Assembly: GCA_964402035.1 (NCBI GenBank)
Contig: CAYOAM010000001.1
Location: 179,558 to 243,557 of the forward strand
Reading direction: 5' to 3'
Length of the DNA: 64,000 bases
Origin: an uncultured Candidatus Saccharibacteria bacterium
GTDB lineage: Bacteria; Patescibacteriota; Minisyncoccia; Phycocordibacterales; UBA918
Every line of letters starts with the position of its first letter. The first letter of the stretch is position 1. The translations under genes were made by a program, and so were the position numbers. The notes under the pieces were generated by a model. It had not been told where the DNA came from, did not search any database, and saw only the letters and a list, made by a program, of their open reading frames with translations. Below are positions 1-57,591 of the stretch, in pieces.

Positions 1-857
1 AGGAGTGTGACGATGGCAACAATACCTCAAACGATTTTTGTGCAGCAGATTGTACGGTTGAAAATGCGGGCGGTGGCGGTGGTTCATCGAGTGGAGGAGG
101 AGGTGGATCTTCTGGCGGAAGCCCCGATGGACCAATGGGAGACACTCAGGTCAGTATTACCGGTAAGGCGTATCCTAATGCGACCGTAAATGTACTCTTG
201 GACGGTGACGTCATTGGTACGGTGCGCGCCAACAATCAGGCTGACTTTACATTTAGTACAGATATTGAACCTGGTACAAATTCCTTCGGTTTCTGGGCAA
301 AGGATTCAAACAGCATTAGATCTATTACCTTAAATACAACATTTGACGTGACGCAGGGTGCGGTGACCACTATTAGTGGCATTATGCTGCCTCCAACAAT
401 CGTTGCAACTCCAAGTCGTGTTGATAAAGGTAGCCCTATCACATTTTCTGGTAAAACAGTCCCAAACTTTACCGTGAAATCATATATTGACACGAGTGCA
501 TTCGTAGAATCCGCTGTGGCAAACAGTAGTGGGGAATGGCAGCTTGTCTTTGATACATCGCGCCTATCTGAAGCCACACATACGGTAAAACCAAAATTTG
601 AGCAATTGACTGGTGGGAAACTCACGGAGAGCAATTTTGGTCAAACACTTTCATTTTATGTAGGGGCTGGCCCTACCGGTGAGATTTCAAGTTCTGATCT
701 CAATAAAGATGGAAAGATAAACTTGATAGACTTTTCGATTTTGATATTTTGGTGGGGGACCAATGGAGGAAATTCAAGTCCTCGCGCAGACATAAATGCC
801 AATGGCAAAGTGGGCCTCGAAGATTTTTCTATATTGTTGTTTAACTGGACAGGCTAG
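1..857 (+). CDS. Dockerin-repeat protein, 5'-partial (reading frame is open to the window start)
   Basis: Frame 3 is open from nt 3. The C-terminus has two dockerin-type Ca-binding repeats (DLNKDGKINLIDFSILIFWWG and ADINANGKVGLEDFSILLFNW). The upstream part is a Gly/Ser linker. Confidence 0.6.
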   Translation, partial: ECDDGNNTSNDFCAADCTVENAGGGGGSSSGGGGGSSGGSPDGPMGDTQVSITGKAYPNATVNVLLDGDVIGTVRANNQADFTFSTDIEPGTNSFGFWAKDSNSIRSITLNTTFDVTQGAVTTISGIMLPPTIVATPSRVDKGSPITFSGKTVPNFTVKSYIDTSAFVESAVANSSGEWQLVFDTSRLSEATHTVKPKFEQLTGGKLTESNFGQTLSFYVGAGPTGEISSSDLNKDGKINLIDFSILIFWWGTNGGNSSPRADINANGKVGLEDFSILLFNWTG

Positions 858-930
858 ATATTATTTTTTTGTGTATAACTCACGCAATGCTTGTTGCTGT
901 GCGTGTACAATGTAAGTACGTTTGACACAG

Positions 931-972
931 AGCGTTGTCCCCATGAGTATCTATACGAGTGGGGACAACGCT
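931..972. repeat. 12-bp perfect inverted repeat (agcgttgtcccc / ggggacaacgct) with an 18-nt loop; no U-tract follows
   Basis: Seen directly in the sequence. It lies just upstream of the IS481-like HTH fragment and is not a canonical terminator. Confidence 0.4.
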
Positions 973-982
973 TGGCAAGAAC

Positions 983-1201
983 ATGCATCAGCAAACCAAA
1001 TTGACGCCAGTCCTTCGTAAAGAAATTTATGAGAAATGGCGCAAAGGTAAGGGGTCATGGTCATTGCGGGTACTTGCAGCCGAGTATCATGTAGACAAAC
1101 GGGTCATTAGTCGAATACTTGAACGCGGAAGCCGTGGAGACTTCAGTGTTCATAGCAGTGCTAATCTCCGATATCGAAAGAGCACGATATCGAAGCGCTG
1201 A
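983..1201 (+). pseudogene. IS481-family-like transposase N-terminal HTH fragment (remnant lacking the integrase catalytic domain)
   Basis: KLTPVLRKEIYEKW...GSWSLRVLAAEYHVDKRVISRILERGSRGDFSVHSS follows the IS481/IS3 N-terminal HTH pattern (LTP.GR...G.S...A..f.VS..TV.RW..R). The ORF is only about 72-80 aa with no rve domain downstream. Confidence 0.3.
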
Positions 1202-1245
1202 TTTTATAAGCGACTGTGGCAAGAAGATAACACAACAAAGAGCAT

Positions 1246-2361
1246 ATGAGTCACACGGAAGCGTCCGTGCGCATGCTCCGAGTAGTCGCGTGTGTTGTGG
1301 GAATTGCACTATTTTTTTGGAGTGTTAGTTTCCCAACACTCTTTAGGGCGGTAGAAGCAGCTTCAATCACGTCTGCGAGTGATACGCTGTCGGATTCTGA
1401 TCAAAATGTGGCTTCAAACCACGTTATCAGATTTACGACACCAAATGGTATCCTTCCAAACGAGACCATCCTCATCACATTTCCAGCAGGATTTGACCTG
1501 ACAGATAACACGCCGACAGGTCTAAATTTTGATGATTTGGATTTGACAGATGATGGAGTAGAGCAAACGTTAGCTGACTCAAACGGTGTCGCACAGTGGG
1601 GCGTTGCAACAACAACGACCACTATCCAACTTACGGCTCCGTCGGGTTCTACGGTAGGTTCTAGTTCGGTCTTAGTGATTGAAATTGGTAATAATGCAAC
1701 ATCAGGGTCAACGGGTGATACTCAAATCATCAATCCTGGGTTGGGTTCTTACACAATCGACATTGCTGGTAGCATGGAGGACTCAGGTTCACTCATGGTT
1801 GCTATCGTCGACAATGTTGTCGTGACTGCTAGTGTTGATACAAATTTTAGCTTTGCCGTTGCGGGGGTTGGGACGGGGCTTTCCGTAAATGGAACGACCA
1901 CCTCGACTACCTCAACAGCGACCGCTATACCATTTGAGACATTATCAAATGGGGTCATCAAAACGCTAGCTCAGGATCTTACCGTTACTACAAATGCCTC
2001 AAACGGCTTTGCAATAACGGTGTACCAGGATACCAATCTTATTTCATCGACAGGGGCTGACATTGATGGGTTCGCTGATGGGGCGTATACCGATACACCC
2101 TCACCATGGGCACATCCAACCGCTAGTCCTTCGAATGAAAAAACATGGGGTCACTGGGGACTAACGTCCACTGATGCAGATCTTTTTGGAAGCAACTTAT
2201 GGGTTTCTCCTAGTACCACACCGCGAACCGTGTTCTCACACACTTCAGTAGTGAATGCGAGCACAACACGTGTTGGATATCAGGCAGAAATCAGTACCCT
2301 CCAAGAGGCTGGTGATGATTACACGACGACACTAACGTACATCGCAACACCGACATTCTAA
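1246..2361 (+). CDS. Secreted Thr/Ser-rich surface protein with N-terminal signal/TM (possible WxL-like C-terminal region)
   Basis: Hydrophobic N-terminus (LRVVACVVGIALFFWSV), long Thr/Ser/Gly-rich beta-like repeats and a C-terminal W-x-L-like segment (KTWGHWGLTST...LWVSP). A terminator follows. Confidence 0.55.
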   Translation: MSHTEASVRMLRVVACVVGIALFFWSVSFPTLFRAVEAASITSASDTLSDSDQNVASNHVIRFTTPNGILPNETILITFPAGFDLTDNTPTGLNFDDLDLTDDGVEQTLADSNGVAQWGVATTTTTIQLTAPSGSTVGSSSVLVIEIGNNATSGSTGDTQIINPGLGSYTIDIAGSMEDSGSLMVAIVDNVVVTASVDTNFSFAVAGVGTGLSVNGTTTSTTSTATAIPFETLSNGVIKTLAQDLTVTTNASNGFAITVYQDTNLISSTGADIDGFADGAYTDTPSPWAHPTASPSNEKTWGHWGLTSTDADLFGSNLWVSPSTTPRTVFSHTSVVNASTTRVGYQAEISTLQEAGDDYTTTLTYIATPTF

Positions 2362-2395
2362 AGAAGCACGCTTTACTTTGTGGAGCCGAAAAACC

Positions 2396-2424
2396 CTATC
2401 TCCCACCACGAGTGGGGTTTTTTC
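2396..2424 (+). terminator. Rho-independent terminator (cccac-cacga-gtggg followed by TTTTTT)
   Basis: Hairpin plus U-tract located 35 nt after the stop of the 1246-2361 gene. Confidence 0.6.
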
Positions 2425-2479
2425 GTTCTCAACATTTCTCTACATGTTAGAAAAAAAACGAATCAACTTTTGCTATACT

Positions 2480-3523
2480 ATGGTTATGCAAGTACGCACT
2501 AAGCGATTTTTTTTCTCTATTGCGCTCTTTGTTTCTCTATATGCTGCTTTTCCTCATTCGGGTATGGCAGCCACATTGTATGTAAGTCCGTCGACTGCAG
2601 ATGTGCTGATGGGTGACTCAGTGAGTCTAGATGTGCGTATCGATACGGACGAAGGCGAGTGTATCAATACCGTAGATGCAGTCATTACCTATGGAGATGG
2701 TATTCAAGCAGTTGATGTATCGCGAGGGAGCTCAATTCTAACGTTGTGGGTCGAAGAGCCGCATATTGATGATGGTACGCAAACCATCACGTTTGCGGGC
2801 GGTATTCCAAATGGATATTGTGGACGCATACCCGGAGATCCAAGTCTGACTAATGTTATTGCAAAATTGGTATTTCGTGCGCCTGGATTTTCTGTTGGTG
2901 CATCACAAAGCAACACGGCGACCATCGCATTTGATAGTGCAACGCGCGTGCTTTTGAATGATGGATTCGGAACACCGGCGCAATTACAGACATTGGATGC
3001 AACGGTCCAATTGATAAAAAAGGTTGGCACTACGACGAGCGATATTTGGCGTGATGCAATTACTGATGATACACAGTCGCCGCAACCATTTAGTATAGAA
3101 TTAGTACACAACCCTGACGTGTTTAGTGGAAAATATTACATTGTATTTAACACAACAGACAAACAATCTGGTCTTGATCATTTTGAAATATTTGAGGAAT
3201 CAGCAAACGATCTATATTCATTTTCTTGGGGAAGTGCGGAAACACCATGGACAAAAGAAGAGAGCCCATACGTACTACATGATCAAGATCTACGGAGCAC
3301 CATACGGGTAAAAGCCGTCGACAAGGCGGGTAATGAACGTATTGCGACACTTATACCAGATGAAAGTTTACGGAGAATCCCAGTAATTGTGTATAGTATC
3401 GCCGCTTTTGTGAGTGTGGTAGGTATTATATTGTTGGGTCTTGCTGTGTGGTATTTTGTGCGCCGTCGCAAAAAAAAGGGTGCCGCTCTTACGCCGGAGT
3501 CTGATGTCGGAGACACTATCTGA
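2480..3523 (+). CDS. Cohesin-domain protein, signal peptide, C-terminal TM anchor
   Basis: Signal peptide MVMQVRTKRFFFSIALFVSLYAAF. Cohesin-like block (LYVSPSTADVLMGDSVSLDVRIDTDEGECINTVDAVITYGDGIQAVD...SILTLWVEEP). C-terminal TM helix followed by RRRKKKG. Confidence 0.6.
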   Translation: MVMQVRTKRFFFSIALFVSLYAAFPHSGMAATLYVSPSTADVLMGDSVSLDVRIDTDEGECINTVDAVITYGDGIQAVDVSRGSSILTLWVEEPHIDDGTQTITFAGGIPNGYCGRIPGDPSLTNVIAKLVFRAPGFSVGASQSNTATIAFDSATRVLLNDGFGTPAQLQTLDATVQLIKKVGTTTSDIWRDAITDDTQSPQPFSIELVHNPDVFSGKYYIVFNTTDKQSGLDHFEIFEESANDLYSFSWGSAETPWTKEESPYVLHDQDLRSTIRVKAVDKAGNERIATLIPDESLRRIPVIVYSIAAFVSVVGIILLGLAVWYFVRRRKKKGAALTPESDVGDTI

Positions 3524-3526
3524 TAT

Positions 3527-5263
3527 ATGTATAAAAATTTGTTTCCACTGTCAATGCCACTCGTGTACGTGCTTTTTGCTGTGTTACTTTTTTTTACGTA
3601 TGACGTTGCGAGCGTTGCTGCAGCTAATCTTCGGCTGTCACCAGAGACGGGCATATATACGACAGGGAATACATTTTCAGTACGTGTGCTCGTGAATACG
3701 CAAGGGCAACCCATCAACGCTGCTGAGGGAGAAATATCATTCAATCAAAGTGATCTCTCAGTTGTCAGTATTTCAAAAGTCGGGTCACTGTTTACGTTGT
3801 GGACTCGAGAACCAGAATTTTCAAATAGCACGGGAAAGATTTATTTTGGAGGCGGTTCCCCGAGTGGGTATACCGGTGCAGCAGGCACCATCATGACGAT
3901 CACCTTTAAGGCAAAATATGCTGGCAGCTCACAGGTCAGCTATTCTTCTGGCTCAATCCTAGCCGCTGATGGTCGCGGTACAAATATTCTTTCAACGATG
4001 CAGGGCGCAACCTATACACTCCAAGCTGCTTTGAGTGTGCCACCTCCAGAATATGTACCTCCTGCAAATACACCCGGTGCTCCCATGGTGACATCTACGA
4101 CTCATCCTAATCCTGCATCATGGTACAAGAGTACGTCGGCTCAGCTTGCGTGGGAATTACCCAATGGGATCACTGCCGTCCGTACCGCGCTCGATCAGAA
4201 AGAGTTGACCATCCCAACAAAAACCTACGAAGAGCCGATACGTGAAATCACGCTTTCTGATCTCAGTGAAGGTGTTTCCTATTTTCATATTCAGTTTAAA
4301 AACGCTGATGGTTGGGGTCGCGTTACGCATTATCGTATTGCAACTGATAGTGAAAAACCAGTGTCGTTTGCGCTATCGCTTGCAGATGGTAATGATCCAG
4401 GAAATCTTGAGCAGGCTATACGTTTTGACGTGGTGGATCAAGGGTCAGGTGTCTCGCATTATGAAATTCAATTGGATGGCGGAGAGCGCGTTCGTTTTGA
4501 AGATCCTGAGCATACGAAGACATATAAGACGGCACGCCTAACACCGGGGGATCATACGATTGTTGTTGAGGCATTTGATCACGCTTTAAATAGTATTGTT
4601 GGTTCACTGCATTTCAACATACAGACGTTTGATGCGCCTCTATTTACGGAATATCCGCACGAAGTGAGTAGTGACGTCATACCGGTACTTCGTGGTACCA
4701 CTCGAGGAAATGCACAAGTCACCATCGATCTTACAAAGATAGGGGCCCAGACGCAGACCTATGTCGTCACTTCGGACACAAACGGCGTCTTTACCTTTAT
4801 ACCGGAAGGCCGATTTACGGAAGGAGTCTACGAAGTCACCGCAATAGCGACGGATGCATTTGGGGCACAAAGTGAGTCCTCTGAAAAAATTCGCATCGCG
4901 GTCCAAAAACCTGGCTTGATTCGTCTCGGTGGCATTGTGATAAACTTTCTTTCAGTAATAGTACCACTACTTGCACTACTCGGCCTTTTGATACTTACGA
5001 GCTGGTACGGGCTGCATCGTATACAGCGCATGCGACGTCGTATACGTAAAGAAGTTGTCGAAGCGGAGCAGAGTCTCGCACGTGAATTCGCAAGCATTGT
5101 GGCTGCAGTAAAGCGAGATGTGGTGATGCTTCGTGATGTGCGTAAAGGAAAGCTCACCAAGCAAGAGGATGTGCTGATTGATGGATTGACCGAGAATCTT
5201 GCGGTAGCTGAAAAACGTATAAAGAAAGAAATCGAAGACATAGAGAAATTGGTGCGCCGCTAA
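3527..5263 (+). CDS. Cohesin-domain surface protein with Ig/FN3-like repeats, TM helix and coiled-coil cytoplasmic tail
   Basis: Signal peptide. Cohesin-like block (LRLSPETGIYTTGNTFSVRVLVNTQGQPINAAEGEISFNQSDLSVVSISKVGSLFTLWTREP). TM helix (VINFLSVIVPLLALLGLLILT) followed by a basic coiled-coil tail. Confidence 0.6.
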   Translation: MYKNLFPLSMPLVYVLFAVLLFFTYDVASVAAANLRLSPETGIYTTGNTFSVRVLVNTQGQPINAAEGEISFNQSDLSVVSISKVGSLFTLWTREPEFSNSTGKIYFGGGSPSGYTGAAGTIMTITFKAKYAGSSQVSYSSGSILAADGRGTNILSTMQGATYTLQAALSVPPPEYVPPANTPGAPMVTSTTHPNPASWYKSTSAQLAWELPNGITAVRTALDQKELTIPTKTYEEPIREITLSDLSEGVSYFHIQFKNADGWGRVTHYRIATDSEKPVSFALSLADGNDPGNLEQAIRFDVVDQGSGVSHYEIQLDGGERVRFEDPEHTKTYKTARLTPGDHTIVVEAFDHALNSIVGSLHFNIQTFDAPLFTEYPHEVSSDVIPVLRGTTRGNAQVTIDLTKIGAQTQTYVVTSDTNGVFTFIPEGRFTEGVYEVTAIATDAFGAQSESSEKIRIAVQKPGLIRLGGIVINFLSVIVPLLALLGLLILTSWYGLHRIQRMRRRIRKEVVEAEQSLAREFASIVAAVKRDVVMLRDVRKGKLTKQEDVLIDGLTENLAVAEKRIKKEIEDIEKLVRR

Positions 5264-5266
5264 CGT

Positions 5267-5947
5267 ATGTTTGTCACTTCACAAAAATATCTGTTCAGCT
5301 TGCTCTTTTTTCTCTTGCTCGGTGGCATAGTACTCGTCGTCCTCTCTACGGTACATGCACAAAAAAAGCGAGACGTACTGCATACCATAGAAGAACATAT
5401 CGATAGCGTTCGATCGGTGTTGGTTGTTGCGCTGCAAACGACCAGTAGCAATGATGTAGATCCAGATGTCAATGCACTAATAAAGGATTGTCAAAGACGA
5501 GACGCTTTTGACGCAGAACTTGGTAGGCTCAATACCTTGACCACTACAGAGTTGCGGACGCTTACTGGTCTTTTTGATGCGTGTGGCGATTACTTTTCGG
5601 TACGAAAAAAATTGATGGTCTATAAGATTGATTTTTTGATTGATGCAATGCATACCGATGTAGAGTACATCGCTCAGTATGCAGACGGTACGAAGTATAG
5701 TGCACTAGCGAAACTGTGGTCTGACATTGGTGCGCAAGAGCGACATCGTAGTGAACTTCTTGGTGAACAGGTGACATTGCAGGGTACGATCATTGAAAAA
5801 TTGTTAGCACGTGATCAGCCTTCACTCAAAACGCTTGTTGAACGAGCGCAAGATATTGGCCAACAACTACAAGTCTTGCAAGTTGAAATACAAAATTTGG
5901 TTGACCGTGAAGCTTCGCTCTGGAGTACGGTGGTTGAGCAGACATAG
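5267..5947 (+). CDS. Membrane-anchored coiled-coil hypothetical protein
   Basis: N-terminal TM helix (LFSLLFFLLLGGIVLVVL), the rest predicted helical. No recognisable catalytic motif. Confidence 0.45.
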   Translation: MFVTSQKYLFSLLFFLLLGGIVLVVLSTVHAQKKRDVLHTIEEHIDSVRSVLVVALQTTSSNDVDPDVNALIKDCQRRDAFDAELGRLNTLTTTELRTLTGLFDACGDYFSVRKKLMVYKIDFLIDAMHTDVEYIAQYADGTKYSALAKLWSDIGAQERHRSELLGEQVTLQGTIIEKLLARDQPSLKTLVERAQDIGQQLQVLQVEIQNLVDREASLWSTVVEQT

Positions 5948-5950
5948 AAT

Positions 5951-6700
5951 ATGAATACCTTCCGACGATTATATCGGACATGGCGAATGCGGCATCGACG
6001 CGAAAGAAGCATGACCGTCCGCTTTGCATTTCCTGCGGTGGTTGTTTTTTCTGCTTTTATGGGACTTGCGCTCACACTATCCTCAGAATCATCCTATGTG
6101 CGCATCGACACCACCCCAAAAGAAGTAGCTGCTGGTGAGACGTTTACTATCAATATATACGCTTCGGCACATGTGCCGACAAACGCCATTGATATAAAGG
6201 TAACCTATCCCGAACAGCAACTTGATATTTTAGGTGTTGATGTTGGAGAGTCGATTATTACTATTTGGACCGAGGAGCCTACAGCAAAAAATGGCGTCAT
6301 ACAGCTACGGGGCGGTGTGTACCGCAAGGGTTTTTTGGGTGAACATGTTATTGCGCACGTAAATGCACGTGCTGTAGATTCTGGTGTTGCACGAATACTC
6401 GCATCAGAAACAGTCTTTTTGGCAGGCGATGGTAGAGGTTCGCAGGTGCCGGTCACGAAACTGGGTGGAGAAAAAGCAGAGATTTCTATTGGAGAGCGTA
6501 GTCTCGAGGGTACACTTGAGAGCAAGGTTACGATCGGCATCGTTACTGATATCGATGGCGACGGGGATGTAGATCTTACCGATATAGAGCGTTTTCTATC
6601 CGATTGGAATGCGCGTCGATCACGGTACGACTTTAATGGAGACGGAAAGATGAGCTTTGTTGATTTTGCTATATTGCTTGCACAGTCATTTTTTAGATAA
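5951..6700 (+). CDS. Cohesin + dockerin dual-module protein (likely true start at ATG 6011)
   Basis: Cohesin-like block (VRIDTTPKEVAAGETFTINIYASAHVPTNAIDIKVTYPEQQLDILGVDVGESIITIWTEEP). C-terminal dockerin repeats (DIDGDGDVDLTDIERFLSDW and DFNGDGKMSFVDFAILLAQ). Signal peptide MTVRFAFPAVVVFSAFMGLALTLS. Confidence 0.6.
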   Translation: MNTFRRLYRTWRMRHRRERSMTVRFAFPAVVVFSAFMGLALTLSSESSYVRIDTTPKEVAAGETFTINIYASAHVPTNAIDIKVTYPEQQLDILGVDVGESIITIWTEEPTAKNGVIQLRGGVYRKGFLGEHVIAHVNARAVDSGVARILASETVFLAGDGRGSQVPVTKLGGEKAEISIGERSLEGTLESKVTIGIVTDIDGDGDVDLTDIERFLSDWNARRSRYDFNGDGKMSFVDFAILLAQSFFR

Positions 6701-6759
6701 TTTTCCAACATAGACCCCATGTTATACTAGCGACACTACACCCCAGTGATTCTTATACT

Positions 6760-7161
6760 ATGGCAAAAGATATAGAAGCTATTTCATTGCTTACGGAGTC
6801 TGAACAGGAGCACTATCTCTCATTGAAAGAAGCTGCGGAGCTTACGGACTACACGCCAGATTATATTGGTCAATTGATTCGCTCGGGTAAAATTGAAGGC
6901 CGTCAGGTGTATACCAATGTCTCTTGGGTGACCACGGAAAAAGCGGTACGTACGTACATGGAGACACGAGGAAAAGTTTTGACAGAACCATCTCTGTCCG
7001 TGACAAGAGATCCACGCCGTGTATTGCAGTATGCGCTCTATGGGATTATTGGCGCTTTAGGGTTTATACTGGTATTGATCGCATATATATTTTTTGTTGG
7101 TGTTGATCGAGCATTGACCGATGTTTCAACGAAAGCAAGTACTATTGAAGGATATGAATAA
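6760..7161 (+). CDS. HTH (excisionase/MerR-like) domain protein with C-terminal TM helix
   Basis: LSLKEAAELTDYTPDYIGQLIRSGKIEGRQV is an HTH_17-like motif. C-terminal TM helix GIIGALGFILVLIAYIFFV. Confidence 0.45.
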   Translation: MAKDIEAISLLTESEQEHYLSLKEAAELTDYTPDYIGQLIRSGKIEGRQVYTNVSWVTTEKAVRTYMETRGKVLTEPSLSVTRDPRRVLQYALYGIIGALGFILVLIAYIFFVGVDRALTDVSTKASTIEGYE

Positions 7162-8158
7162 CAAAGCAGCAGCACGAATTTTTTCTCTAGCATTGCTCTG
7201 TTGCGTGGGATTCTGTGCGATGCCTACAGCGCATGCTAATACCTATGTTGTTGCACCACGATTTATAGATCTCACCGTTGAACCGCGGGATATTATTGAG
7301 GAAAAAATACTCGTCACCAATGGGGGTGCACCCGTATCACTTTTTACGGTCGTTAATGAAGTGACGGTAGGGATTGAAGGCGGGCTCAAAGAGTTTGTGA
7401 CACCCTCTATGTCTGATCGTTCTTCGACACTGACGAGTTGGATTGAAATTAGTCGTGCCGGTTTTGATCTTGCTCCCGGTGCATCTCGTGAACTACCGCT
7501 CGTTATACGAGTGAATCCGTCTGCCGAACCCGGTGAATACCATGCCATGATTGCCTTTGCTCCGGGCACCACGATCGATGATGCCATGCAACGTGTCAAG
7601 CAGGGGGATGTACCCAGCGTGCTCATAAATGTCACCATAGAAAAGAAATCCAATGATTTTGTAAATCTTGCCCGTTTCAGTATAAAAAAGTTTGTAACAG
7701 CATTTCATGATGGCGACGTGCAGTATCGCGTTGATAATACGGGTGATACAGAACTCATTCCGAGCGGAGATATCATCATCTACAATCAACGTGGAGAAGA
7801 AGTGGCAACCGTACCGGTTAATGCAGATGCAAAATCCGTTCGACCGGGAGATACGGTAACATTTTCGGGAGGTGTACCTATTGAGGGTCTATTGGGGAAA
7901 TACAAAGCATTTCTTACACTAAGATATGGCAGTGAGCAGGCGGCTGTATATGACACCGTATATTTTTATGTATTTCCTTGGAAAAAAATCGGCATCATTT
8001 TTGTGATATTCGCCGTCCTTGCTATCGCATGTGCATTGTGGATACACCGGAGATATAGCCAAGACGAAGATGATGATGGAGCGCACGAATTGCCAGTACG
8101 GGTGCGCGAGTCAGCCTCTGTAGCGCACGAACGAGATGTAATCATGCGACCAAAATAA
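7154..8158 (+). CDS. Secreted Ig-like (DUF916-like) surface protein with C-terminal TM anchor, paralog A
   Basis: Signal peptide MNNKAAARIFSLALLCCVGFCAMPTAHA. Shares architecture and motifs with the next gene. C-terminal TM helix followed by a basic stretch. Confidence 0.5.
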   Translation: MNNKAAARIFSLALLCCVGFCAMPTAHANTYVVAPRFIDLTVEPRDIIEEKILVTNGGAPVSLFTVVNEVTVGIEGGLKEFVTPSMSDRSSTLTSWIEISRAGFDLAPGASRELPLVIRVNPSAEPGEYHAMIAFAPGTTIDDAMQRVKQGDVPSVLINVTIEKKSNDFVNLARFSIKKFVTAFHDGDVQYRVDNTGDTELIPSGDIIIYNQRGEEVATVPVNADAKSVRPGDTVTFSGGVPIEGLLGKYKAFLTLRYGSEQAAVYDTVYFYVFPWKKIGIIFVIFAVLAIACALWIHRRYSQDEDDDGAHELPVRVRESASVAHERDVIMRPK

Positions 8159-9819
8159 TGCGCTTTTTATCTATCCATATCATAGGTGCAGCAAGCTTTA
8201 TTGGGATGCTGTTTTTCTCTGTTCCCGTTCATGCACAAGAGTCGTTGTCCATCAGTATCACGCCTCCACTATTCCAGCTCAATGTCACGCCCGGCGAAAC
8301 CTTCAAGAGTTCGGTAAAGGTGATCAATACTAATCGATATCCACTCACGGTGTATGCGACCGTATTTGATTTTAAGCCAAAAGGAGAAGATGGACAGGGT
8401 GATTTCGCTCCTCGTGTGACGGAGGGGGATATGGTGGGTAAGACACTTGCGGATTGGATTTCCCTAGAGTTGGATACGCTGACCGTGCCGCCGGAACAGA
8501 GTACTGAAATCCCAATTACCGTATCGATACCAAACGATGCCACTCCGGGGGGACATTTTGCGGCGATTTTAGTAGGTACCCGTCCTCCGGATAAAGGAGA
8601 TGTGACAGTCGTGCGTACATCACAGGTCGTCACGTCGCTTTTCTTTTTGCGTGTAGCAGGTGACGTGCAAGAAGAAGGAAAGATTCGAGAGTTTTCGGTT
8701 GCACATTTGTTGCGCGAAAGCCCTGAAGCCGAATTTTCTGTCAGATTTGAAAATGTGGGGAACGTGCACTTGCAACCCCAAGGAGGTATTTCTATATACA
8801 ATATGTGGGGTAAAGAACGCGGATTTATACCGATTAATCAAAAATCACATTTTGGAAACGTTTTGCCACAAAGTATACGAAAATTTGATTTTTCATGGCG
8901 TGGAGAGGGATCTATAGCAGACATTGGTCGGTATATGGCTGAAGTAACGCTCGTATATGGACAAGATGGACGTACCACGGTAAACCGTATCTTATATTTT
9001 TGGGTGTTGCCAATTCGGGCTGCTTTGTTGACACTGTGCGGTATCGCAGCATTTGTCTATTTTGTTGTGTGGATGATTCGACGGTATATTCAGCGCACTA
9101 TATATCTTTCTGGGTATGAAGATGTTAGCGTACCGAAAAAACCAACGGTAGTAGAAAACGATGCTGTGACGTTGCGACCATCCTCAACAAAAACCAAGGT
9201 GCCTCGGACGCTTAGCATGCGCGATTATGCTGCACCTTTGCGCGAAGGAGTACTGGATCTAAGGCGACAGATTAATAGTGATGAGGTGATTGAGAGTACG
9301 TTATACGCGCGAATGTTATTGTATATACGAACCTACAAGGTATTCTTTTTGACTATTGGTATAGTGCTCATATTCGGGACGCTTGGTGGCTTGTACCTTG
9401 TGGATGTGCTGACCAAAAATAAATCCTACGAAGTCACTGTTGAGCGAGGGGATGTTAGTGTTGTGATGTCTTCAGAGGAAATAATTAAGGGCCAACTACC
9501 ACATACAGAGGCCACTGCTGCATTGACGCACGCACAAGATTTTACCCTGAACATTCTAAATGCCACAGCTGTACCAGGCTCAGCTGCTACTGTTGGCCAG
9601 CACTTGGAAACACTTGGATATCGCGTACACTCGGTAACCCAAGTTATAGATCGAGCTGATACGACCGAAATATTATACGACCCTGGTCTCAAGGAAGCTG
9701 CAGAGACACTACGTGCCACATTTAGCGATACGGAGGTTCTGATTCGTGAAAACCCTGACAATCAAATATCTACATCAACGATAACAATTATGGTGGGTAT
9801 GGACAATATAAAAGAGTGA
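8158..9819 (+). CDS. Ig-like surface protein, paralog B, with two TM helices and a C-terminal LytR_C (LytR/CpsA/Psr C-terminal) domain
   Basis: Signal peptide, N-terminal domain paralogous to 7154-8158. C-terminal segment matches LytR_C (TLNILNATAVPGSAATVGQHLETLGYRV...TEILYDPG...IMVGMD). Confidence 0.55.
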   Translation: MRFLSIHIIGAASFIGMLFFSVPVHAQESLSISITPPLFQLNVTPGETFKSSVKVINTNRYPLTVYATVFDFKPKGEDGQGDFAPRVTEGDMVGKTLADWISLELDTLTVPPEQSTEIPITVSIPNDATPGGHFAAILVGTRPPDKGDVTVVRTSQVVTSLFFLRVAGDVQEEGKIREFSVAHLLRESPEAEFSVRFENVGNVHLQPQGGISIYNMWGKERGFIPINQKSHFGNVLPQSIRKFDFSWRGEGSIADIGRYMAEVTLVYGQDGRTTVNRILYFWVLPIRAALLTLCGIAAFVYFVVWMIRRYIQRTIYLSGYEDVSVPKKPTVVENDAVTLRPSSTKTKVPRTLSMRDYAAPLREGVLDLRRQINSDEVIESTLYARMLLYIRTYKVFFLTIGIVLIFGTLGGLYLVDVLTKNKSYEVTVERGDVSVVMSSEEIIKGQLPHTEATAALTHAQDFTLNILNATAVPGSAATVGQHLETLGYRVHSVTQVIDRADTTEILYDPGLKEAAETLRATFSDTEVLIRENPDNQISTSTITIMVGMDNIKE

Positions 9820-9853
9820 TATACTAAGCCTATTATTTGTAGATATATACACT

Positions 9854-10345
9854 ATGGATAGACAAACAGTACTACTCATCGTTGCATTATTTGTCGCTAT
9901 CGTTGCGGGTATGTTTATTTTTTCATATATCAACAGAGCGGACACTGATACGGTCACTCCGCCTGTCACCGTTACACCTGAAGTGCCGGCACCAGTAGAC
10001 AATGGTCTTTTTGCTCGAATCGATGCAAAGCATTTTTACTCAGCATCGCTTGGGCTGCATACGGTAGCGGGAGAGCTCCCGATGCCAACGCCGTGTGATC
10101 TTCTTAATACCAATACGGTGTTGCTCGATGACGGTAAACGAGCAGTGATTTCGTTTGATGTGATCAATAACTCTGAAGGACTTTGTGCGCAAGTCATCAC
10201 TCCACAACGTTTCAAGGCAACATTTAAGGCATCAAAGGATATTAAAATAGAGGCTGTCCATCAAGGGAAACAGATCCCCCTCAATCTGATTGAGGCAGGG
10301 AAGGATGAAGATCCAGCGGATTTTGAATTGTTCCTGAAAGGATAG
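9854..10345 (+). CDS. Membrane-anchored hypothetical protein
   Basis: N-terminal TM helix (VLLIVALFVAIVAGMFIF). Followed by a strong terminator. Confidence 0.45.
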   Translation: MDRQTVLLIVALFVAIVAGMFIFSYINRADTDTVTPPVTVTPEVPAPVDNGLFARIDAKHFYSASLGLHTVAGELPMPTPCDLLNTNTVLLDDGKRAVISFDVINNSEGLCAQVITPQRFKATFKASKDIKIEAVHQGKQIPLNLIEAGKDEDPADFELFLKG

Positions 10346-10359
10346 GGCGCTTGTATAGA

Positions 10360-10404
10360 AACCGCCGCATAAAACCGCATAGCGGTTTTATGCGGCGGTT
10401 TTGT
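10360..10404 (+). terminator. Rho-independent terminator (19-bp perfect stem aaccgccgcataaaaccgc / gcggttttatgcggcggtt plus U-tract)
   Basis: Seen directly: long palindrome followed by TTTTG. Confidence 0.75.
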
Positions 10405-17294: not shown

Positions 17295-20200
17295 ATGAAT
17301 GGTAGTAGACAATGGTGTGTATCTATCGGACAGAGTTTTAATTCAGTGTATAGAAAAACCGTGAGCATCCTGCTCGCGGTTTTTTTGTTACTCGAACCGC
17401 TCACCCCACTCTTTGCGGCAGAAGAGGTGCCACAAACAACCGACGCTCCCGCAACCACTAGTGCTCCTGTTGATACAACGCCCGTCATCACAGTACCAAG
17501 AGGTACAGAACCACCACCAGAAACCAATACTTCACAGACAGAAGACGGCGTGGAATTTAGTGTTGATGGAAAAACACCAGAGATAAAACCTCCACCAAAA
17601 GTGGAACAACCATCCGAAGATACGAAAAAGCTCGAAGAGGTAGAGCCGGAAACAGAGTCTCTCATGGGGATGGGTGGAGCAACTCAAGGTAGTGATCGTG
17701 GTCAAGTACGCCTTAGCTCAAAGATCAATGAACAGGACGGCGCATTTACGTACGACTACCCCCTTATGGTGCCTCCAGGAAGAAATGGGAGAGAACCCAG
17801 CTTAGTTCTTTCATACAATAGCAGAGGGGGAGGCGATGATGATATCTTTGGATACGGCTGGAGTATCAACATCCCTTTTATCGAGCGGGTCAACAAGGTT
17901 GGCAGCGAACAGATATTCACCCAGAGTGTTTTTTATTCCTCCCTCGGAGGTGAACTCGTACAAATAGGAAGCACGACGCAGTATCGTCCCAAAGTAGAAA
18001 CAGGAGAATTTCTAAAATATGTCTTTGCAAATGACCTCTGGAAGATCACCGATAAAAGCGGTACAGTCTACACCTTTGGGTCCACCACCTCTTCGCGCGA
18101 GGATAATGCTGCAAGTTCAACTCAGATTGCGAAATGGATGCTCGACGAGGTACGTGATACGAATGACAACTATGTAAAGTACACGTACTACAAGGCAGAC
18201 AATCGCGCGTATCCTGCGACAATCGTGTATACAGGCAGTGGGGCGACAGATGGCCCATTTTCTATTTCTTTTGTGCGTAGTACGACTACCAGCAATTCTC
18301 CCCGGTACGAAAGCGGTTTTGCCGCTACAACCACGTACCGTATTTCAGAAATTAACACTGCGGTAAGTGGCAGTTGGGTGAGAAAATATGCGCTCGCGTA
18401 TGGGGTAGGGGACAACAGTGTGCGCACACTTCTTTCAGGTATCACTGAGAGTGCACGCACCGAAGGTAGTACAGCATCAACTACCATGCCGGCAACTACG
18501 TTTACATACGAAAACACGATGAGTCAGACATGGACCGCTTCTTCATGGGCGCTTCCAGAGCCATTTACACAAAATGGCATCGACATGGGTACGCGCGATG
18601 TGGATATAAACGGTGACGGCTTTCCTGACATCATTCGTTTTTATAGAGATGCGACAGGGACTACGATCAAACGAGTGTATCTTAACAACAAGGTTGACGG
18701 CTGGACCTTGCAGAGTTCATGGGACTGGACCTACTTCACCGTACCATTTTCAGAATATTATGCAGTGGGTGACAGCAATGCGCGGAATGACAATGGTGTA
18801 CGTTTTGCGGATGTGAATGGAGACGCCTTAACTGACGTGCTCATTGGTTATGATGGAAATGGCTCGAGTGACACACAAAAAATCTATATCAACTATGGCG
18901 CCGGATGGTCGTACGATTCTTCATGGGTACTGCCTGTGTACTTCACTCGTTACTATAGCTCGCGAGTGTGGGACAACGGTGTGCGCATCGCAGATATAAA
19001 TGGTGACGGTCTTCCCGATTTAGTTTCTGCACAGTGGAATGCGTCAAGTACGCTCTCAACAGTTTTTTTGAATACCGGGAGTGGTTGGAGCACGACCACT
19101 TCATGGGTTATGCCGCGTGCATTTACTGGAGCATATGATGGTGTCCACCAAGGCAAAGACCTTGGTACACAACTAGTCGATGTGAACGGAGATGGACTTA
19201 CTGACGTGGTGCATGGGCTCAAGAGTACAATATTTGGTAACTCAAAAAATACGTATCTCAATACCGGAAGTGGTTGGGCAACAAGTACGCTATGGGACCT
19301 CCCAGACTATCTCATCTGGGCAGACGAAGCGGTGTCCGATATAGGATATCGATTTGAGGACGTCAATGGCGATGGACTTGTAGATCTTTCTATCAATAAC
19401 ACATTCGGGGGTTCGATTCCGGATGATGATATCTATATTAATACGGGTGCTGGTTGGACCAATAGTATCGGTAATTTTCCACCCTACCAGTTTGTCACAA
19501 GTACAGGAGATACAGGGGCACGCTTTATGGATGTGAATGCCGACCGTTTACCAGACGAAGTGTACGGCAACACGTCAAGTTCGACAGGGCCCGTAAGTTC
19601 CGAAGAGACCTATTTGAATCGTCGTGAAGTCGGTGACCTTCTTATCAATGTCACCGAACCGAAAGGCGGGACACTTGCCATTACCTACCAAAGCTCACAT
19701 GAGTACAGGAGTGCTGGGAGCTCGACAAATCCCTCTCTCCCATTTCCGATCACCACTGTAGCCACTACGACAAAAGATGCTGGATTCGGCACCACCGAGA
19801 CACAAGCTTATCTCTATGAAGGTGGTGACTACTGGTTTGACGCCACTCTATTTCGTGATCGTAAGTTTGCTGGATTTAGTACCATGACAAAAACTGGTCC
19901 AACTCAGAAAGAGAGAATCTATTTTCACCAAGGGAATGAGACGAATGTCACATCTGGAGAATACGCCGATGACAGTACAAAAATTGGTTTCCCATACCGC
20001 AGTGAAGTGGCCGACCTTGCTAATCGTCCCTATAAAGTCTCAACAAGTGAGTGGGTGACAAGTGACCTTGGAAGTAGCGCTTCATTTGTGAAGGAGACAC
20101 AGACGATCGATCTTGCATACGATGGAGACAGTGACTACAAAGCGCGGGCGGTGACGTATGTATACGATGACACAAACGGTCTTCTCACTACCAAAACCGA

Positions 20201-23200
20201 ATGGGGTGAAGTGACACCTACTACAACAAACTCACAGGTGGTGAGTACTTCTTCTGCTTCTATCGACCTTGAGAGTGGAAGTAGCCAACTCTTAGGTATC
20301 ACTGATGCCGCACAGTCAACACTCGATATCTTGGGAAGTATGACTATTGAGGCGTGGGTGCGCCCCGAGAGCCAACCGAGTGTTGGTGGTATTAGCGTTA
20401 TCGCCTCAAAGTGGAGTGCAAGTGCTGACCAATCCTATGCTCTGTATTATGAAAATGATGCAGGAACAAAAAAGCTTGTCTTTCGTATGGATGACACAAC
20501 AACGAACCCATCAAAGATATGCTCGCTCTCGACTACCTTGAGTGACGCAACATGGTATCACGTGGCTGTCGCATATGACGCAGCAAATGCAAGTAGCACA
20601 CTCTATGTAAACGGTAGCAGTATTGGATATTGTACAGGTCTCTATACGAGCATACTCAATTCTACGACAGATTTCCGAGTAGGGGCGTGGCAGAATACTG
20701 CAACACATTTCTTTGATGGGCTTATCGACGAACTACGTGTCTGGAGCGGAGTTCGCACACAAGCACAGATCCAAGCATCGAAAGACGCAGAGCTTGCGGG
20801 AAACGAAAGTGGCCTCCAGGCGTATTGGCGCTTGAATAACTCTTCGCTCGATACCACAACAAACGACAATGATCTTACCCTCTATGGTGGGCCAGTCTAC
20901 AGTACTTCAACACCACTTGCGTCTGTGTACACCACAGCAGCGTCACGCTTTACCTTCACTGACGCGGGGGTCGATAAACGCACAACACAGTACACCTATG
21001 CCTCAAATACTGCGGCATACGTCACACTTCTTCAGAAAGAGACTCTGCTCGATAGGGCTTCAAGTACGATACGTGAAAACAGATTCTACTACGACACTCA
21101 GGCACTCGGCACGGTGACTGACGGAAATATGACGAAAGCAGAACGCCTCGTATCTGGTTCGTCTACATACATTGATGAAGAGTGGACGTACAACAGCTAC
21201 GGGCTTGTATCACAGAGCAAAGACCCACGCGATAAAGCAACGACCTATGTCTATGACTCATACAACCTCTATCCGGCGACGACTACCAACCCTGTCTCTC
21301 ACGTACTCCTTAAATCCTACGACTATTCAAGTGGTAAGGTTGCGACGACAACCGATCCAAACAGTCGTGTGTTCGTTACTGTATACGATGCATTTGATCG
21401 ACCTATTGAGGAGCAAATTCCTGATCCTGTATCAGGTTCGCCTGTCACAAAAGCAACATATAGTTATATCGACACAGCAGGGAGTAACCGTATAGCGACA
21501 ACACAAAATCTCAATAATAGTACATCGACAGAATCGTACGACTACTTCGACGGCTTTGGACGCAAGATCCAGTCGCGTGTAGAAAGTGAGGCATCAAACA
21601 CTTTTGCAGTTCGTGACTTTTATTACAACAGCAACGGACTCTTGGATCGTGAGTCGCTCCCATATTTTAACAACGGTTCCAGTCGCACAAGTTCCACAAC
21701 CGATGCAGAGCTGTATAGCATCTACACGTACGACCCTCTCGGCCGTATTGCCACCACGACGACTGCCGTAGGTACAACAGCAACTGTCTTTGACGACTGG
21801 ACGGAACGTGTCGTTGACGCGCTTGGCAACCCGAAAGGATTTGCGTATGACGCGTACGGAAGGCTCGCAACTACAACTGAATACAATGCCTCGACGACCT
21901 ACGCCACAGCCTACCTCTGGGACATGACCGATAAGCTTGCAACTATTACCGATGCCTTGGGCAACATCCGTGCGATCACGTACGACAAACTGGGGAGGAG
22001 GCTCACACTTCAGGATCTCCATGCTTCGGCGGACACCACATTTGGTACTTCAAGTTTTGCATACGATGCATCTGGAAATCTAGGAACGACCACTGATCCC
22101 AAGGGGCAAACGGTGGTACGTACGTACGATGACGTAAACCGCATCCTCACCGAAAACTACACAGGACTTGCGGGGACTGAGATCTCGTATACGTACGACA
22201 CCTGCACTAACGGCAAAGGTAAGCTGTGCCAGGCTATACGTGCAAGTTCTGCAACGACGACCTATGCGTACACACCACCGGGACTTCTGGATATCGCTAC
22301 CACGACCGTCGGTACGTCAACGTACACCGCAAATTACGACTACGATAGACAAGGCAACCAAACGCAGCTCACGTACCCAGACGCTTCGGTGGCAAGTTAT
22401 ACGTACAACACGGGAGGGCAACTCGAAAAGGTGCAGTACAAAGAGAGTGGGGGATCCTACTCTGATGTCGTGAGCGATTTCAACTATGGTCCCCACGGCA
22501 TGATCACCTACGAGCTCTACGGCAATGGTGTCTCGACAACAAAAGTCTACGACGAAGATCAGCTCTATAGACTTAAAACCATTATTACGGTCACCGCTAC
22601 AGGTACCGTGGGGTACGGAGGCGGGGGTGATGAGCTTCGCGAACTAGAAACCTCACTCACTCTTGGTACAGACGGCACACTTCTCTTTGCGGTAGAGGAA
22701 GAAATAGGTGCCATACCTGAAGAGGAGGCGATACTCGAAGAAGAAACTGCTACTCAAGAAGAGGTCCCAGATATAACACCACCACTTGATACGGAAGATG
22801 TGGGGGAGACTCTCGAAGAAGAGAGTCCTATAGGTACAAGTACAGACGACGGTGCAGTGGCAGCAACCTCTTCCACGCCAGAAACTGCGTTTTCTTCAAC
22901 TACAGAAGAAGTCGCTTCAAGCACACCTGAGGACACGTTCCTTGAGAGTACGAGTACCATTGATATGCTTCTCGTCGGGACGACCACAGCAACCACGACT
23001 GACCTTGCAACTTCCACGACACCAATACTCACCGGTATTATGGCACTTATCGAAGGGAAGACATATGAAGAGATTGCCCGTATAAAATCAGAAGAGATTG
23101 CAAAGATTGATATGCGCGGTCTCTATACAAAAGGAGATCTTGATATCGAGATACTCGATGTGGCACAGATAGATGGTGGCATACAAGTCTTTGCGCGCGC

Positions 23201-56800: not shown

Positions 56801-57591
56801 ATCCAACGGGGTATGCAACAGGAGATGAATTTCGTGCGACCCTACCAAAAGTTGTGCCGATACCAAAATCTACAAACGGAATGTCGGGTATGGCAGGTAT
56901 GCCGGGAATGGGTGGCATGATGGGTACTGGGTTGTCGTTTGGTATGAGCACGTCGAGTATTTCATTTGCCATGGTCCTGCCTGAGAACAATTACACCGCT
57001 ATCCCTGAACGTGTATTTGTTCAAATGGGTAAAAAGCAAAATGTCGCCTTTGAGCTTGTGGATCGCAGCAATACGCCGATTCAATTGAGTAAAGATGTGC
57101 CACGCGCACTCTCAGTAACATTTGTAAAAAGCGATGATAGGGTAAAACTTGAAACGTACATCGGCAACACTGCATTTGATACGGTTGCAGCTCCTGCTGC
57201 TATGCCCATGGTCCCAAATGGTGCGCCGTTTGATGAATCTATGCCACACAGTCACCCAACCTCAATGTTCCCCTCACTCATACCTGTTGCCTCTGCGCAT
57301 GGGACAGTGAATGACGGACATGCGGGAGTCGCACCACTCACATACACCTACGCAGTGCCTGTAGTGTTCCCAGAAAAAGGAGTGTACCGAGCATTCGTCC
57401 AGTTTTTGCCGGTTGGTGGAAGCGAGATTCGTACTGTGTCTTTCAACATGGAAGTGGGCGCATCTGGATGGTCAGTAGACAATTACGGTTGGTCAAAAAC
57501 AAAGAAATGGTGGACATTATTGATCATCTCACTCATTACAATGTTGCCGCTGATTTACGGCGTGCGACGCTATATCGGTAACGAAAAATAA
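53860..57591 (+). CDS. Fusion protein: CcdA/DsbD-like thiol-disulfide transmembrane domain + coiled coil + multicopper oxidase (three cupredoxin motifs, Met-rich segment) + C-terminal TM anchor
   Basis: CcdA-like domain with Cys in two TM helices (IIMPCTLPLAF and GIGCPHPATP). MCO motifs HSHG, WFHPH, HPIHFHGQRF and HCHIVEHLHGGMM. Met-rich MSGMAGMPGMGGMMG segment. C-terminal TM helix WWTLLIISLITMLPLIY. Confidence 0.75.
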   Translation: MAEHQPVEATASVEMPANRARTLLIFGAISVFAAMVFGLLYLFVIAPAAPGSSLGWFLFSFATGITMIIMPCTLPLAFVIVPLSMGKGLVKGISMALAFGLGITITQSLYGVAAAVLGKLAIGALGADLEVVKNWVYLVAGIFALVFALSEIGLMKFRMPTYTGAAPAFIQQRRDAFKAFLLGLFLGNIGIGCPHPATPLLLIEAASSGDVLYGWLLFLVHASGRVLPLLLLAFLAILGVNGLNFLVTKKDAVERATGWAMVFVAGFILTLGLFTHAWWVNSGIHTMLEKVTQESYFNARFNDMLNSAVAHNHGLETGTAMFGLPLWLGNWFLVSVWILPIWWWWFRKRKSLMQSPVFRIQALEGRIDELEKERRQVESMVALDEAEVSFDLKVHEAEIDRLEQIRRAEEEKVHYSEKGVLQSPIAQTYEMKMLYTVRNYLFVLSVFIVLVFAYFLPTNFYLASISGMGGHAHTPVAVSTSTTQALIPFSTDTANLPDATLTQTITLQDGGTYKVSAGYVKRQLGNRVLRMMAYNGSVPGPFIHAPEGSTVNIEFTNNTDIDQTIHSHGVRVDNLSDGVPGVTQVAVKPGETYTYTINFKDVGVYWFHPHTRDDYGQELGLYGNYIVEPSDEKYYSPVNREIPLVIDDILIENERIAPFYKEYTDHALLGRFGNEFLVNGAENFTTNVKMGEVVRFMVTNVSNARTYNLSIPGLKIKLVGSDAGKYERETSVDSLLLSPAERAIVEVYFEKPGVFTLTHTDPSNSVKLATFGVSSEERADVSYAKEFAVMRTDTSATTTYAAIRAMLPALPQKNVLMTVDLGMNAAAMNHGAHAHAMPGMMTSASTSNPSGIQWDDVGNTDTINTTQNVTWKLVDLENNLVNDAINWKFKVGEFVKVRFTNDKMAMHVMQHPIHFHGQRFVVLARNGVPNDNLVWKDTALVLPGETVDLVVDMSNPGLWMAHCHIVEHLHGGMMLNFRVEDPTGYATGDEFRATLPKVVPIPKSTNGMSGMAGMPGMGGMMGTGLSFGMSTSSISFAMVLPENNYTAIPERVFVQMGKKQNVAFELVDRSNTPIQLSKDVPRALSVTFVKSDDRVKLETYIGNTAFDTVAAPAAMPMVPNGAPFDESMPHSHPTSMFPSLIPVASAHGTVNDGHAGVAPLTYTYAVPVVFPEKGVYRAFVQFLPVGGSEIRTVSFNMEVGASGWSVDNYGWSKTKKWWTLLIISLITMLPLIYGVRRYIGNEK

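Follow-up and report, generated by a model that had tools for sequence, protein, structure and literature searches.

A candidate Pam-type pilus locus with cohesin and dockerin genes in a bacterium of the Candidate Phyla Radiation

The first 10,345 positions of a 64,000-nucleotide stretch of DNA from a bacterium of the Candidate Phyla Radiation (CPR; contig CAYOAM010000001.1, positions 179,558 to 243,557; hereafter the window) hold 11 open reading frames (ORFs), all on the + strand, which include genes for cohesin and dockerin proteins, for a candidate pilin and for two-domain proteins resembling the WxLIP proteins of Firmicutes. We argue here that this cluster most probably encodes the assembly of a fibre together with a docking module, because one of its products (g2) is pilin-like and its immunoglobulin (Ig)-like paralogs are built like the chaperones of the Pam pilus. 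An initial annotation had seen in the same genes a modular docking system; the docking module stands, whereas docking alone is no longer the best description of the locus. The cluster was also thought to occupy positions 1 to 10345, and it is indeed found there, but it extends upstream beyond the window. Public metagenome contigs match the window with 0 mismatches over 12,361 bases and reach further upstream, position 8729 of one of them (L001) being position 1 of the window. Because this identical contig continues, we can tell that the start of the window cuts the cluster; the first gene, g1, lacks its first 95 residues, and a WxLIP-like gene, g0 (L001:7484-8443, with its stop 286 bp upstream of the window), and four more conserved genes lie before it. 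At the other end, a strong terminator-like hairpin with a 20-bp stem (10359-10401, + strand) is the probable 3' end of the transcription unit. No further copies of the locus families were found elsewhere in the 64-kb window. For comparison, we used a synteny set of 80 GTDB loci around g2 homologs, annotated with iterated local profiles of each window domain, and transmembrane (TM) topology was called by hydropathy.

Four of the genes encode cohesin or dockerin modules. The g1 ORF (3..857, +) is the C-terminal 284 residues of a 379-residue secreted protein that consists of a signal peptide, Cys-rich DUF4215 repeats, a Gly/Ser linker, two Ig-like (Big_6) domains and a type I dockerin; it scores 29.8 bits against Dockerin_1 (Pfam gathering score 22.9) and 31.2 bits against Big_6, and the full-length L001 protein scores 38.6 bits against DUF4215. 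Its dockerin has two intact calcium-binding loops, DLNKDGKINLID / DINANGKVGLED, as read from the sequence, and g1 orthologs hold the same position in 34 loci. The g3 protein (2480..3523, +) has a signal peptide, a cohesin, an Ig-like domain, a C-terminal TM segment (residues 297-329) and a basic tail, with no LPXTG motif, and g4 (3527..5263, +) has a cohesin, an Ig-like domain (Big_13, 38.7 bits), a C-terminal TM segment (residues 462-497) and a cytoplasmic coiled-coil-like tail of ~80 residues. The g6 protein (5951..6700, +), which is secreted, carries both a cohesin and a dockerin according to Pfam and family hidden Markov models (HMMs), with 24.9 bits for Dockerin_1, E-values of 2e-43 and 2e-25 for the family cohesin and dockerin HMMs, two intact calcium-binding loops (DIDGDGDVDLTD / DFNGDGKMSFVD, again read from the sequence) and the same architecture in 34 loci, making it a candidate adaptor. 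Against PF00963 (gathering score 24.1), the g4 cohesin reaches 28.7 bits when the domain is scored in isolation, as compared with 23.7 bits within the whole protein. Taken alone, the g3 and g6 domains stay below threshold (13.0 and 15.6 bits, respectively), and we count them as cohesins because they are paralogous to the g4 cohesin (E 2e-14 for g3 and 1e-8 for g6); the local family HMM matches g3 at 6e-47. PF00963 itself is matched by 32 of 45 members of the cohesin family (best 1.9e-11), and the nine PDB matches of the family profile are all scaffoldin cohesins. Thus, the three cohesin proteins (two of them TM-anchored), the dockerin-tailed protein and the dual cohesin and dockerin protein that the initial annotation listed are all present.

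Cohesins and type I dockerins side by side, with cellulosomal scaffoldins as the closest solved cohesins, bring to mind a minimal cellulosome-like system for polysaccharide degradation. We reject that reading, to which we give next to no credence. This is not a cellulosome because no glycoside hydrolases were found in any ORF, as the initial annotation had also stated, and, more broadly, no glycoside hydrolase, carbohydrate esterase or carbohydrate-binding module rose above threshold in the window genes or the related cassettes examined. Furthermore, each cohesin protein has one cohesin, there is no multi-cohesin scaffoldin, and the dockerin-bearing proteins are non-enzymatic, being Ig/Cys-rich or pilin-like. 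Known cohesin-dockerin systems, both cellulosomal and non-cellulosomal (Peer et al. 2009, PMC3035643), share with this locus type I dockerins with duplicated calcium-binding loops, cohesin beta-sandwiches and the logic of anchoring protein, adaptor (cohesin plus dockerin) and cargo; the locus differs from them in TM anchoring in place of SLH or sortase anchoring, in its single cohesin per protein, in the lack of enzyme cargo and in being genetically embedded in a pilin/chaperone cassette.

Between g1 and the cohesin genes lies the candidate major pilin. The g2 ORF (1273..2361, +; alternative start 1246) encodes 362 residues with a signal peptide, a beta-sandwich N-terminal domain (NTD; residues ~35-178, about 10 strands), a linker (residues ~180-191, NVVVTASVDT) and a beta C-terminal domain (CTD; residues ~192-362). 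Its AlphaFold2 model has a mean predicted local distance difference test score (pLDDT) of 89.5, dipping to 69 at residues 181-190, which is the linker; despite this low model confidence, the linker is conserved, with V182, V184, A186 and T190 each at 90% or more. On the model, the linker may thus be a strand that becomes ordered only inside a neighbouring subunit, as expected for a donor strand. Donor-strand exchange is the assembly principle of the Pam pilus of Ca. Mycosynbacter amalyticus, solved by cryo-electron microscopy (cryo-EM) in 2026 (Troman et al., bioRxiv 10.64898/2026.03.03.709456), and it is from this pilus that the NCBIfam model NF058581, CPR_Pam_pilin_C, derives (same preprint). 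Among the Pfam and NCBIfam models searched, this one alone recognizes g2, below threshold; similar sub-threshold matches occur in 32 of 55 close and 36 of 47 distant g2 relatives (best 1.5e-10). One distant relative, P0328, aligns along model positions 3-148, and other members of the family match the N-terminal and the C-terminal part of that model in the correct order. Matches that are weak but repeated and collinear indicate remote homology, not family membership by NCBI's rule.

The resemblance of g2 to the Pam pilins goes beyond this model. In both cases, the family is restricted to CPR bacteria, each genome encodes several pilin paralogs, and the pilin, exported by Sec, joins an N-domain of the beta-sandwich type to a C-terminal Ig-like domain through a conserved linker. 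The mass of mature g2 (~35 kDa) and its signal peptide both agree with PamB. The g2 family is large, comprising 2,553 clusters at 50% identity, of which 485 are found at E<=1e-30, and its named members are all Parcubacteria, Paceibacteria, Kaiserbacteria, Nomurabacteria or Falkowbacteria. Immediately 3' of g2 is a terminator- or attenuator-like hairpin with a T-run (2401..2417, +). Of 75 pilin genes in related loci, 79% are followed by an equivalent hairpin with a T-tail (at or below -8 kcal/mol), as against just 6-16% of the WxLIP-like, cohesin, dockerin or g5 genes, and a pilin-specific terminator of this kind fits a structural subunit that is produced in larger amounts than the factors that assemble it. 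An attenuator-like hairpin 3' of the major-subunit gene is likewise a feature of chaperone-usher loci (Pap/Fim/Caf).

Two beta-domain proteins with membrane anchors are encoded downstream. The g8 protein (7154..8158, +) has a signal peptide, two beta-sandwich domains and a C-terminal TM helix, an arrangement that its AlphaFold2 model reproduces with a pLDDT of 90.1. In Foldseek searches, its best match is the WxLIP of E. faecium (9i25_C, 1.4e-10; 9i1y), then RbmA (5.6e-10), and, lower, the chaperone-usher chaperones FimC, Caf1M, EcpB and CupB2 (~1e-7); the top PDB sequence match of the g8 family profile is EfmWxLIP1 (E 0.012). The g9 gene (8158..9819, +) encodes a g8 paralog (E 4e-20) with a second TM segment and a C-terminal LytR_C domain (47 bits). 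Both g9 and the upstream g0, a WxLIP-like protein of ~320 residues with a TM segment, have the g8 architecture of two beta domains and a C-terminal TM helix. A tandem pair of DUF916-like paralogs, one of them with LytR_C, had been proposed for g8 and g9; the paralogy, the LytR_C domain and a WxLIP-like fold are borne out, and the Pfam family is approached and not reached, as g9 scores 26.6 bits against DUF916/WxLIP_PGBD (PF06030), just under the gathering score of 27.3, and g8 itself has no match, with weak matches in 16 of 55 g8 homologs. Membrane-anchored proteins with two PapD/FimC-like beta domains and a C-terminal TM helix are what has been described for Pam assembly, in which PamC and PamD are FimC/PapD-like chaperones with a C-terminal TM segment and PamR is an RbmA-like, TM-anchored terminator (bioRxiv 10.64898/2026.03.03.709456). 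As in the Pam system, these two-Ig proteins are encoded alongside the pilin, and there is no usher, secretin or ATPase among the genes of the window. We therefore regard g8, on the basis of its model, as a candidate membrane-anchored pilus chaperone or anchor; as RbmA is its third-best fold match, one of the WxLIP-like proteins may have either a PamR-like or a chaperone role. The chaperone-usher systems have the same two-domain Ig-like chaperone fold and, as proposed here, donor-strand complementation and exchange. They differ from the locus in that its organism has no outer membrane or usher, its chaperones would be membrane-tethered, and its g2 subunit has two domains with a proposed donor strand that is internal (the linker) rather than N-terminal.

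The match to WxLIP raises another possibility, namely that the locus is the CPR version of the WxL/Csc wall complex of Firmicutes, in which g2 would be a WxL-type wall-binding protein held on peptidoglycan by g8 and g9 (and LytR_C would also bind the wall) in a static arrangement with no fibre. In WxL clusters, WxL proteins are accompanied by a TM-anchored WxLIP (DUF916 plus DUF3324), from which, as AlphaFold predicts, WxL receives a strand (Hassan et al. 2023, PMC10599100), and WxLIP (PDB 9i1y, 9i25) is the best structural and sequence match of g8 and g9. As in those clusters, the WxLIP-like genes adjoin genes for secreted proteins whose C-terminal beta domain would be completed by a strand from WxLIP, and small and giant proteins share the same C-terminal domain, some g2 relatives being giant with only a C-terminal pilin-type domain, like the "large WxL proteins". 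The g2 C-domain also contains "HWGL" and, at its end, "...LTYIATPTF", which recall the two WxL motifs. The initial annotation had described g2 as a Thr-rich protein with a WxL-like C-terminal segment, a description that did not survive: none of the window proteins, g2 included, matches Pfam WxL (PF13731), which at least two proteins of a WxL cluster should carry, and the same holds for 55 g2 homologs even at E<=1; g2 or its CTD alone finds nothing under E 0.4 among PDB sequences, including the WxL chain of 9i25; and the one model that does recognize g2 is the Pam pilin model. Nor does the locus have an LPXTG partner of the CscD type, and it has CPR-specific additions in the LytR_C fusion and the cohesin and dockerin genes, whereas WxL complexes are described as wall-bound and not as fibres (PMC10599100). 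We consider the static wall complex unlikely, and for g2 the role of major subunit in a Pam-type pilus is the better reading. The two readings are not necessarily exclusive if WxL and Pam domains share ancestry, and a common origin of the Pam and WxL systems is worth testing. As a separate observation, one distant member of the g2 superfamily matches the NCBIfam "TafC family fimbrial protein" (E 4e-11, in the A4 alignment). TafC is a haloarchaeal Tat-fimbria family, and a related bundling pilus assembles via strand donation (PMC11821415, PMC12337348); the match could hint at a broader superfamily of strand-exchange fibres.

How these genes travel together is best seen from the related loci, in which two cassettes recur. 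Cassette A, the window's type, is found in 34 species and consists of a WxLIP-like gene, a g1-type dockerin gene, a pilin gene, a cohesin-TM gene, a cohesin-Ig-TM gene, g5 and a cohesin plus dockerin gene, with g0 as its first gene. Cassette B, whose full set is found in 25 species, runs from a pilin gene to a WxLIP-like gene (the one directly following the other in 36 cases), then through a variable stretch, often with two FGE-sulfatase-domain proteins, to genes for a ~630-residue protein, an Hsp20 and a TM-anchored cohesin (37.7 bits for the cohesin and 34.5 bits for the dockerin in locus L008). The ~630-residue protein begins with a pilin N-domain and ends with a dockerin. Single sequences suffice to relate its head to the pilin N-domain (phmmer 7.8e-8 and 2e-7; BLASTP 2e-7); the alignment continues through the final strand of the N-domain and breaks off halfway along the linker, such that the protein has a pilin N-domain and proximal linker without an acceptor C-domain. 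It shares its tail of two Ig domains and a dockerin with g1 (E 1e-31), which has the Cys-rich DUF4215 head instead. The window's own genome holds cassette B at another locus, L084. In a distant parcubacterial locus, L086, there are two pilins, three WxLIP-like genes (the third carrying LytR_C, like g9), a dockerin-tailed pilin-NTD protein, Hsp20 and a cohesin. The g8-g9 pair adjoins pilin genes in L008, L010 and L086, and in L008 and L010 it follows a ~2,000-residue protein that ends in a pilin C-domain. Further Pam-related NCBIfam models matched none of the WxLIP-like proteins, the type B pilin, the dockerin protein or the cohesin. We also note that cassette B regularly includes one or two FGE-sulfatase-domain proteins, a protein of 126-133 residues and a cytoplasmic-type Hsp20 between dockerin and cohesin (L084, L008, L086), and that a sortase gene and one for a 1000-residue SdrD_B/SpaA-like protein lie just upstream of cassette B in L084.

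The cassettes bear directly on whether the cohesins and dockerins could form a system of their own, i.e. a self-contained display scaffold with g3 and g4 in the membrane, g6 as adaptor and g1 as cargo, beside which g2 would be a non-polymerising adhesin and the Ig-like proteins would be unrelated or merely co-regulated. The modules required for such a scaffold are verified, and no dockerin protein of cassette A has a pilin-derived part. Moreover, non-cellulosomal cohesin and dockerin pairs are known in many lineages (Peer et al. 2009, PMC3035643, cited in PMC10066038), and in Southlakia, a CPR bacterium, transposon sequencing has shown one dockerin protein to be essential (Tn-seq; PMC10633639). 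We agree with the initial annotation that cohesins and dockerins are used here outside a cellulosome, on the surface of a cell with a small genome (a CPR bacterium) and together with DUF916/WxLIP-like proteins, and the combination that it called unusual is real and kept in dozens of species. Against a self-contained scaffold stands the gene order: in at least 59 loci plus a distant lineage, pilin and WxLIP-like genes share fixed cassettes with the cohesin and dockerin genes, and the cassette B dockerin protein bears a pilin N-domain. The sub-threshold matches of the g2 family to the Pam pilin model and the conserved terminator at the g2 gene only, as expected for an excess subunit, also speak against a non-polymerising g2. 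We consider the scaffold improbable.

The reading that we favour, and that we consider reasonably likely, is that the locus encodes a Pam-type pilus of a Paceibacteria-type CPR bacterium, together with an integrated module of cohesins and dockerins for anchoring or display. Judged from its sequences, the locus is probably a remote relative of the Pam pilus that falls under the NCBI membership threshold. In such a system, g2 would be exported by Sec and make up, as its abundant structural subunit, a thin pilus that is a distant relative of the Pam pili, and the linker of one g2 would complete the C-domain of the adjacent subunit by donor-strand exchange. The WxLIP-like proteins g0, g8 and g9 would hold the subunits and hand them over at the membrane, like PamC/PamD and Firmicute WxLIP, and one of the three may cap or anchor the fibre. 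The membrane cohesins of g3 and g4 would bind the calcium-dependent dockerins of g1, with its Cys-rich head and Ig stalk, and of g6, which might add a further layer through its own cohesin. The dockerin protein of cassette B is suggested to be the fibre terminator because it has a pilin N-domain and linker (the donor) without an acceptor C-domain; it would end the fibre and plug into the neighbouring membrane cohesin. A cohesin-dockerin pair would then stand in for the TM helix of PamR or for the sortase anchor of other monoderm pili. Only tentatively do we propose this full version, in which a Paceibacteria Pam-type pilus would be tied to the cell by a cohesin-dockerin joint, with the dockerin-tailed terminator seated in a TM cohesin and the cassette A sockets (g3, g4 and g6) mounting the Cys-rich adhesin g1 beside or on the fibre.

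A number of observations weigh against a Pam-type pilus, or against its link to the docking module. With regard to sequence, g2 scores 22.9 bits against CPR_Pam_pilin_C, far under the curated cut-off of 55 bits, and all matches in the g2 family lie below that cut-off; P0047, the type B pilin paralog of the same genome, has no match to the model at all. With regard to structure, a Foldseek search with the g2 model against a PDB copy that does not contain the solved Pam structure returned generic two-Ig adhesins only, and mature g2 has no cysteines and thus none of the cysteine pairs of PamA/B. With regard to lineage, Pam pilins are reported in Saccharimonadia and Microgenomatia and not in Paceibacteria (bioRxiv 10.64898/2026.03.03.709456), whereas the present locus is, judging from homolog titles, of Paceibacteria/Parcubacteria type and has cohesin and dockerin genes as fixed cassette members. 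That preprint makes no mention of the lineages of the g2 family, of WxL, or of cohesin or dockerin, and we found no paper tying cohesin or dockerin to CPR pili in the literature collection searched. The window contains no tip pilin that consists of the CTD only, as PamT does; giant proteins that end in a pilin CTD occur in the related loci L008, L010 and L030. In addition, conserved gene order among related small genomes may partly reflect common descent. Finally, the cassette A dockerin protein g1 has no pilin-derived domain. We considered the mature N-terminus of g1 (xATTTLxLSICG) as a mimic of the donor strand in the pilin linker (DTxFTFTVxG) and rejected it, as HMMs of the linker segment ranked g1 orthologs no higher than background among ~7,400 ORFs. 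Because g1 lacks a pilin domain and this donor-strand test was negative, the link between fibre and docking in cassette A is one of conserved synteny.

The remaining genes of the locus are less telling. Between g4 and g6 lies g5 (5267..5947, +), which encodes an N-terminal TM segment and a helical domain with no Pfam or NCBIfam match and which occupies this position between the g4 and g6 orthologs in 34 of 34 type A loci. Upstream of the pilin gene, an ORF of 80 residues (959..1201, +) gives a weak helix-turn-helix (HTH)-like signal (HTH_38, E 0.006, sub-threshold) and has homologs in the same position in just 3-4 related loci. The g7 gene (6760..7161, +) encodes an excisionase/MerR-like HTH (HTH_17, 21.9 bits, sub-threshold) with a C-terminal TM segment (residues 87-122) and is lineage-specific, being found in 1 of 80 related loci. 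Judging by their sequences, both of these small HTH-like ORFs, the latter membrane-tethered, are possible local regulators. The last gene, g10 (9854..10345, +), encodes a small TM-anchored protein with no Pfam or NCBIfam match and no homolog in the 80 related loci, and it is doubtful that it is part of the system. Upstream of the window, the stretch L001:1028-8443 encodes an fn3 protein of 499 residues, an ABC (ATP-binding cassette) ATPase, a MacB/FtsX-type permease, a 608-residue protein without a family match and g0, and these five genes are conserved in place in 25-34 related loci. Lying beside a surface-fibre locus, an ABC pair of the MacB type might provide energy or export, which the Pam paper calls absent.

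Elsewhere in the window, two large ORFs and the region that follows the first of them deserve mention. An ORF of 2763 residues (17295-25586, +) resembles Rhs-family toxins (7q97 Rhs, 2e-11; Tse5, 3e-10), and its N-terminal region is SpvB/YenB (Tc toxin B)-like, making it a polymorphic-toxin-type protein in a CPR genome. Just downstream, at ~26-30 kb, the GC content falls to 37-40%, as compared with ~45-47% elsewhere, and this region might hold immunity genes or orphan toxin modules. In a protein of 1243 residues (53860-57591, +), residues ~510-990 form a multicopper oxidase of three domains that resembles laccase and CueO (E down to 8e-43). Such an enzyme is unusual in a CPR bacterium with its minimal metabolism; the ~500 residues before the oxidase domains have no PDB match.

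CPR bacteria (Patescibacteria), which account for much of bacterial diversity, live attached to other cells by means that are mostly unexplained. The first description of the Pam pilus, from a single cultured saccharimonadial parasite, dates only from 2026 (bioRxiv 10.64898/2026.03.03.709456). The very large and unannotated g2 family is suggested to be the same kind of fibre in a lineage from which none had been reported, and this fibre would be genetically tied to cohesin-dockerin modules; the combination of pilin and chaperone genes with cohesin and dockerin genes is tightly conserved and undescribed. The reading predicts pairings that can be tested, i.e. pilin with chaperone, dockerin with cohesin, and the pilin-NTD-dockerin protein with pilin, and it connects the work on Pam pili, on WxL/WxLIP clusters and on non-cellulosomal cohesins and dockerins, three fields that so far do not cite one another. 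It may also explain why dockerin proteins can be essential in CPR bacteria, as seen by Tn-seq in Southlakia. If the full version with the cohesin-dockerin joint is true, a monoderm pilus would be anchored in a new way and the cohesin-dockerin interaction would gain a new biological role. As a corollary, one ancient family would embrace the Pam chaperones together with Firmicute WxLIP and perhaps also WxL domains and the C-domains of Pam pilins.

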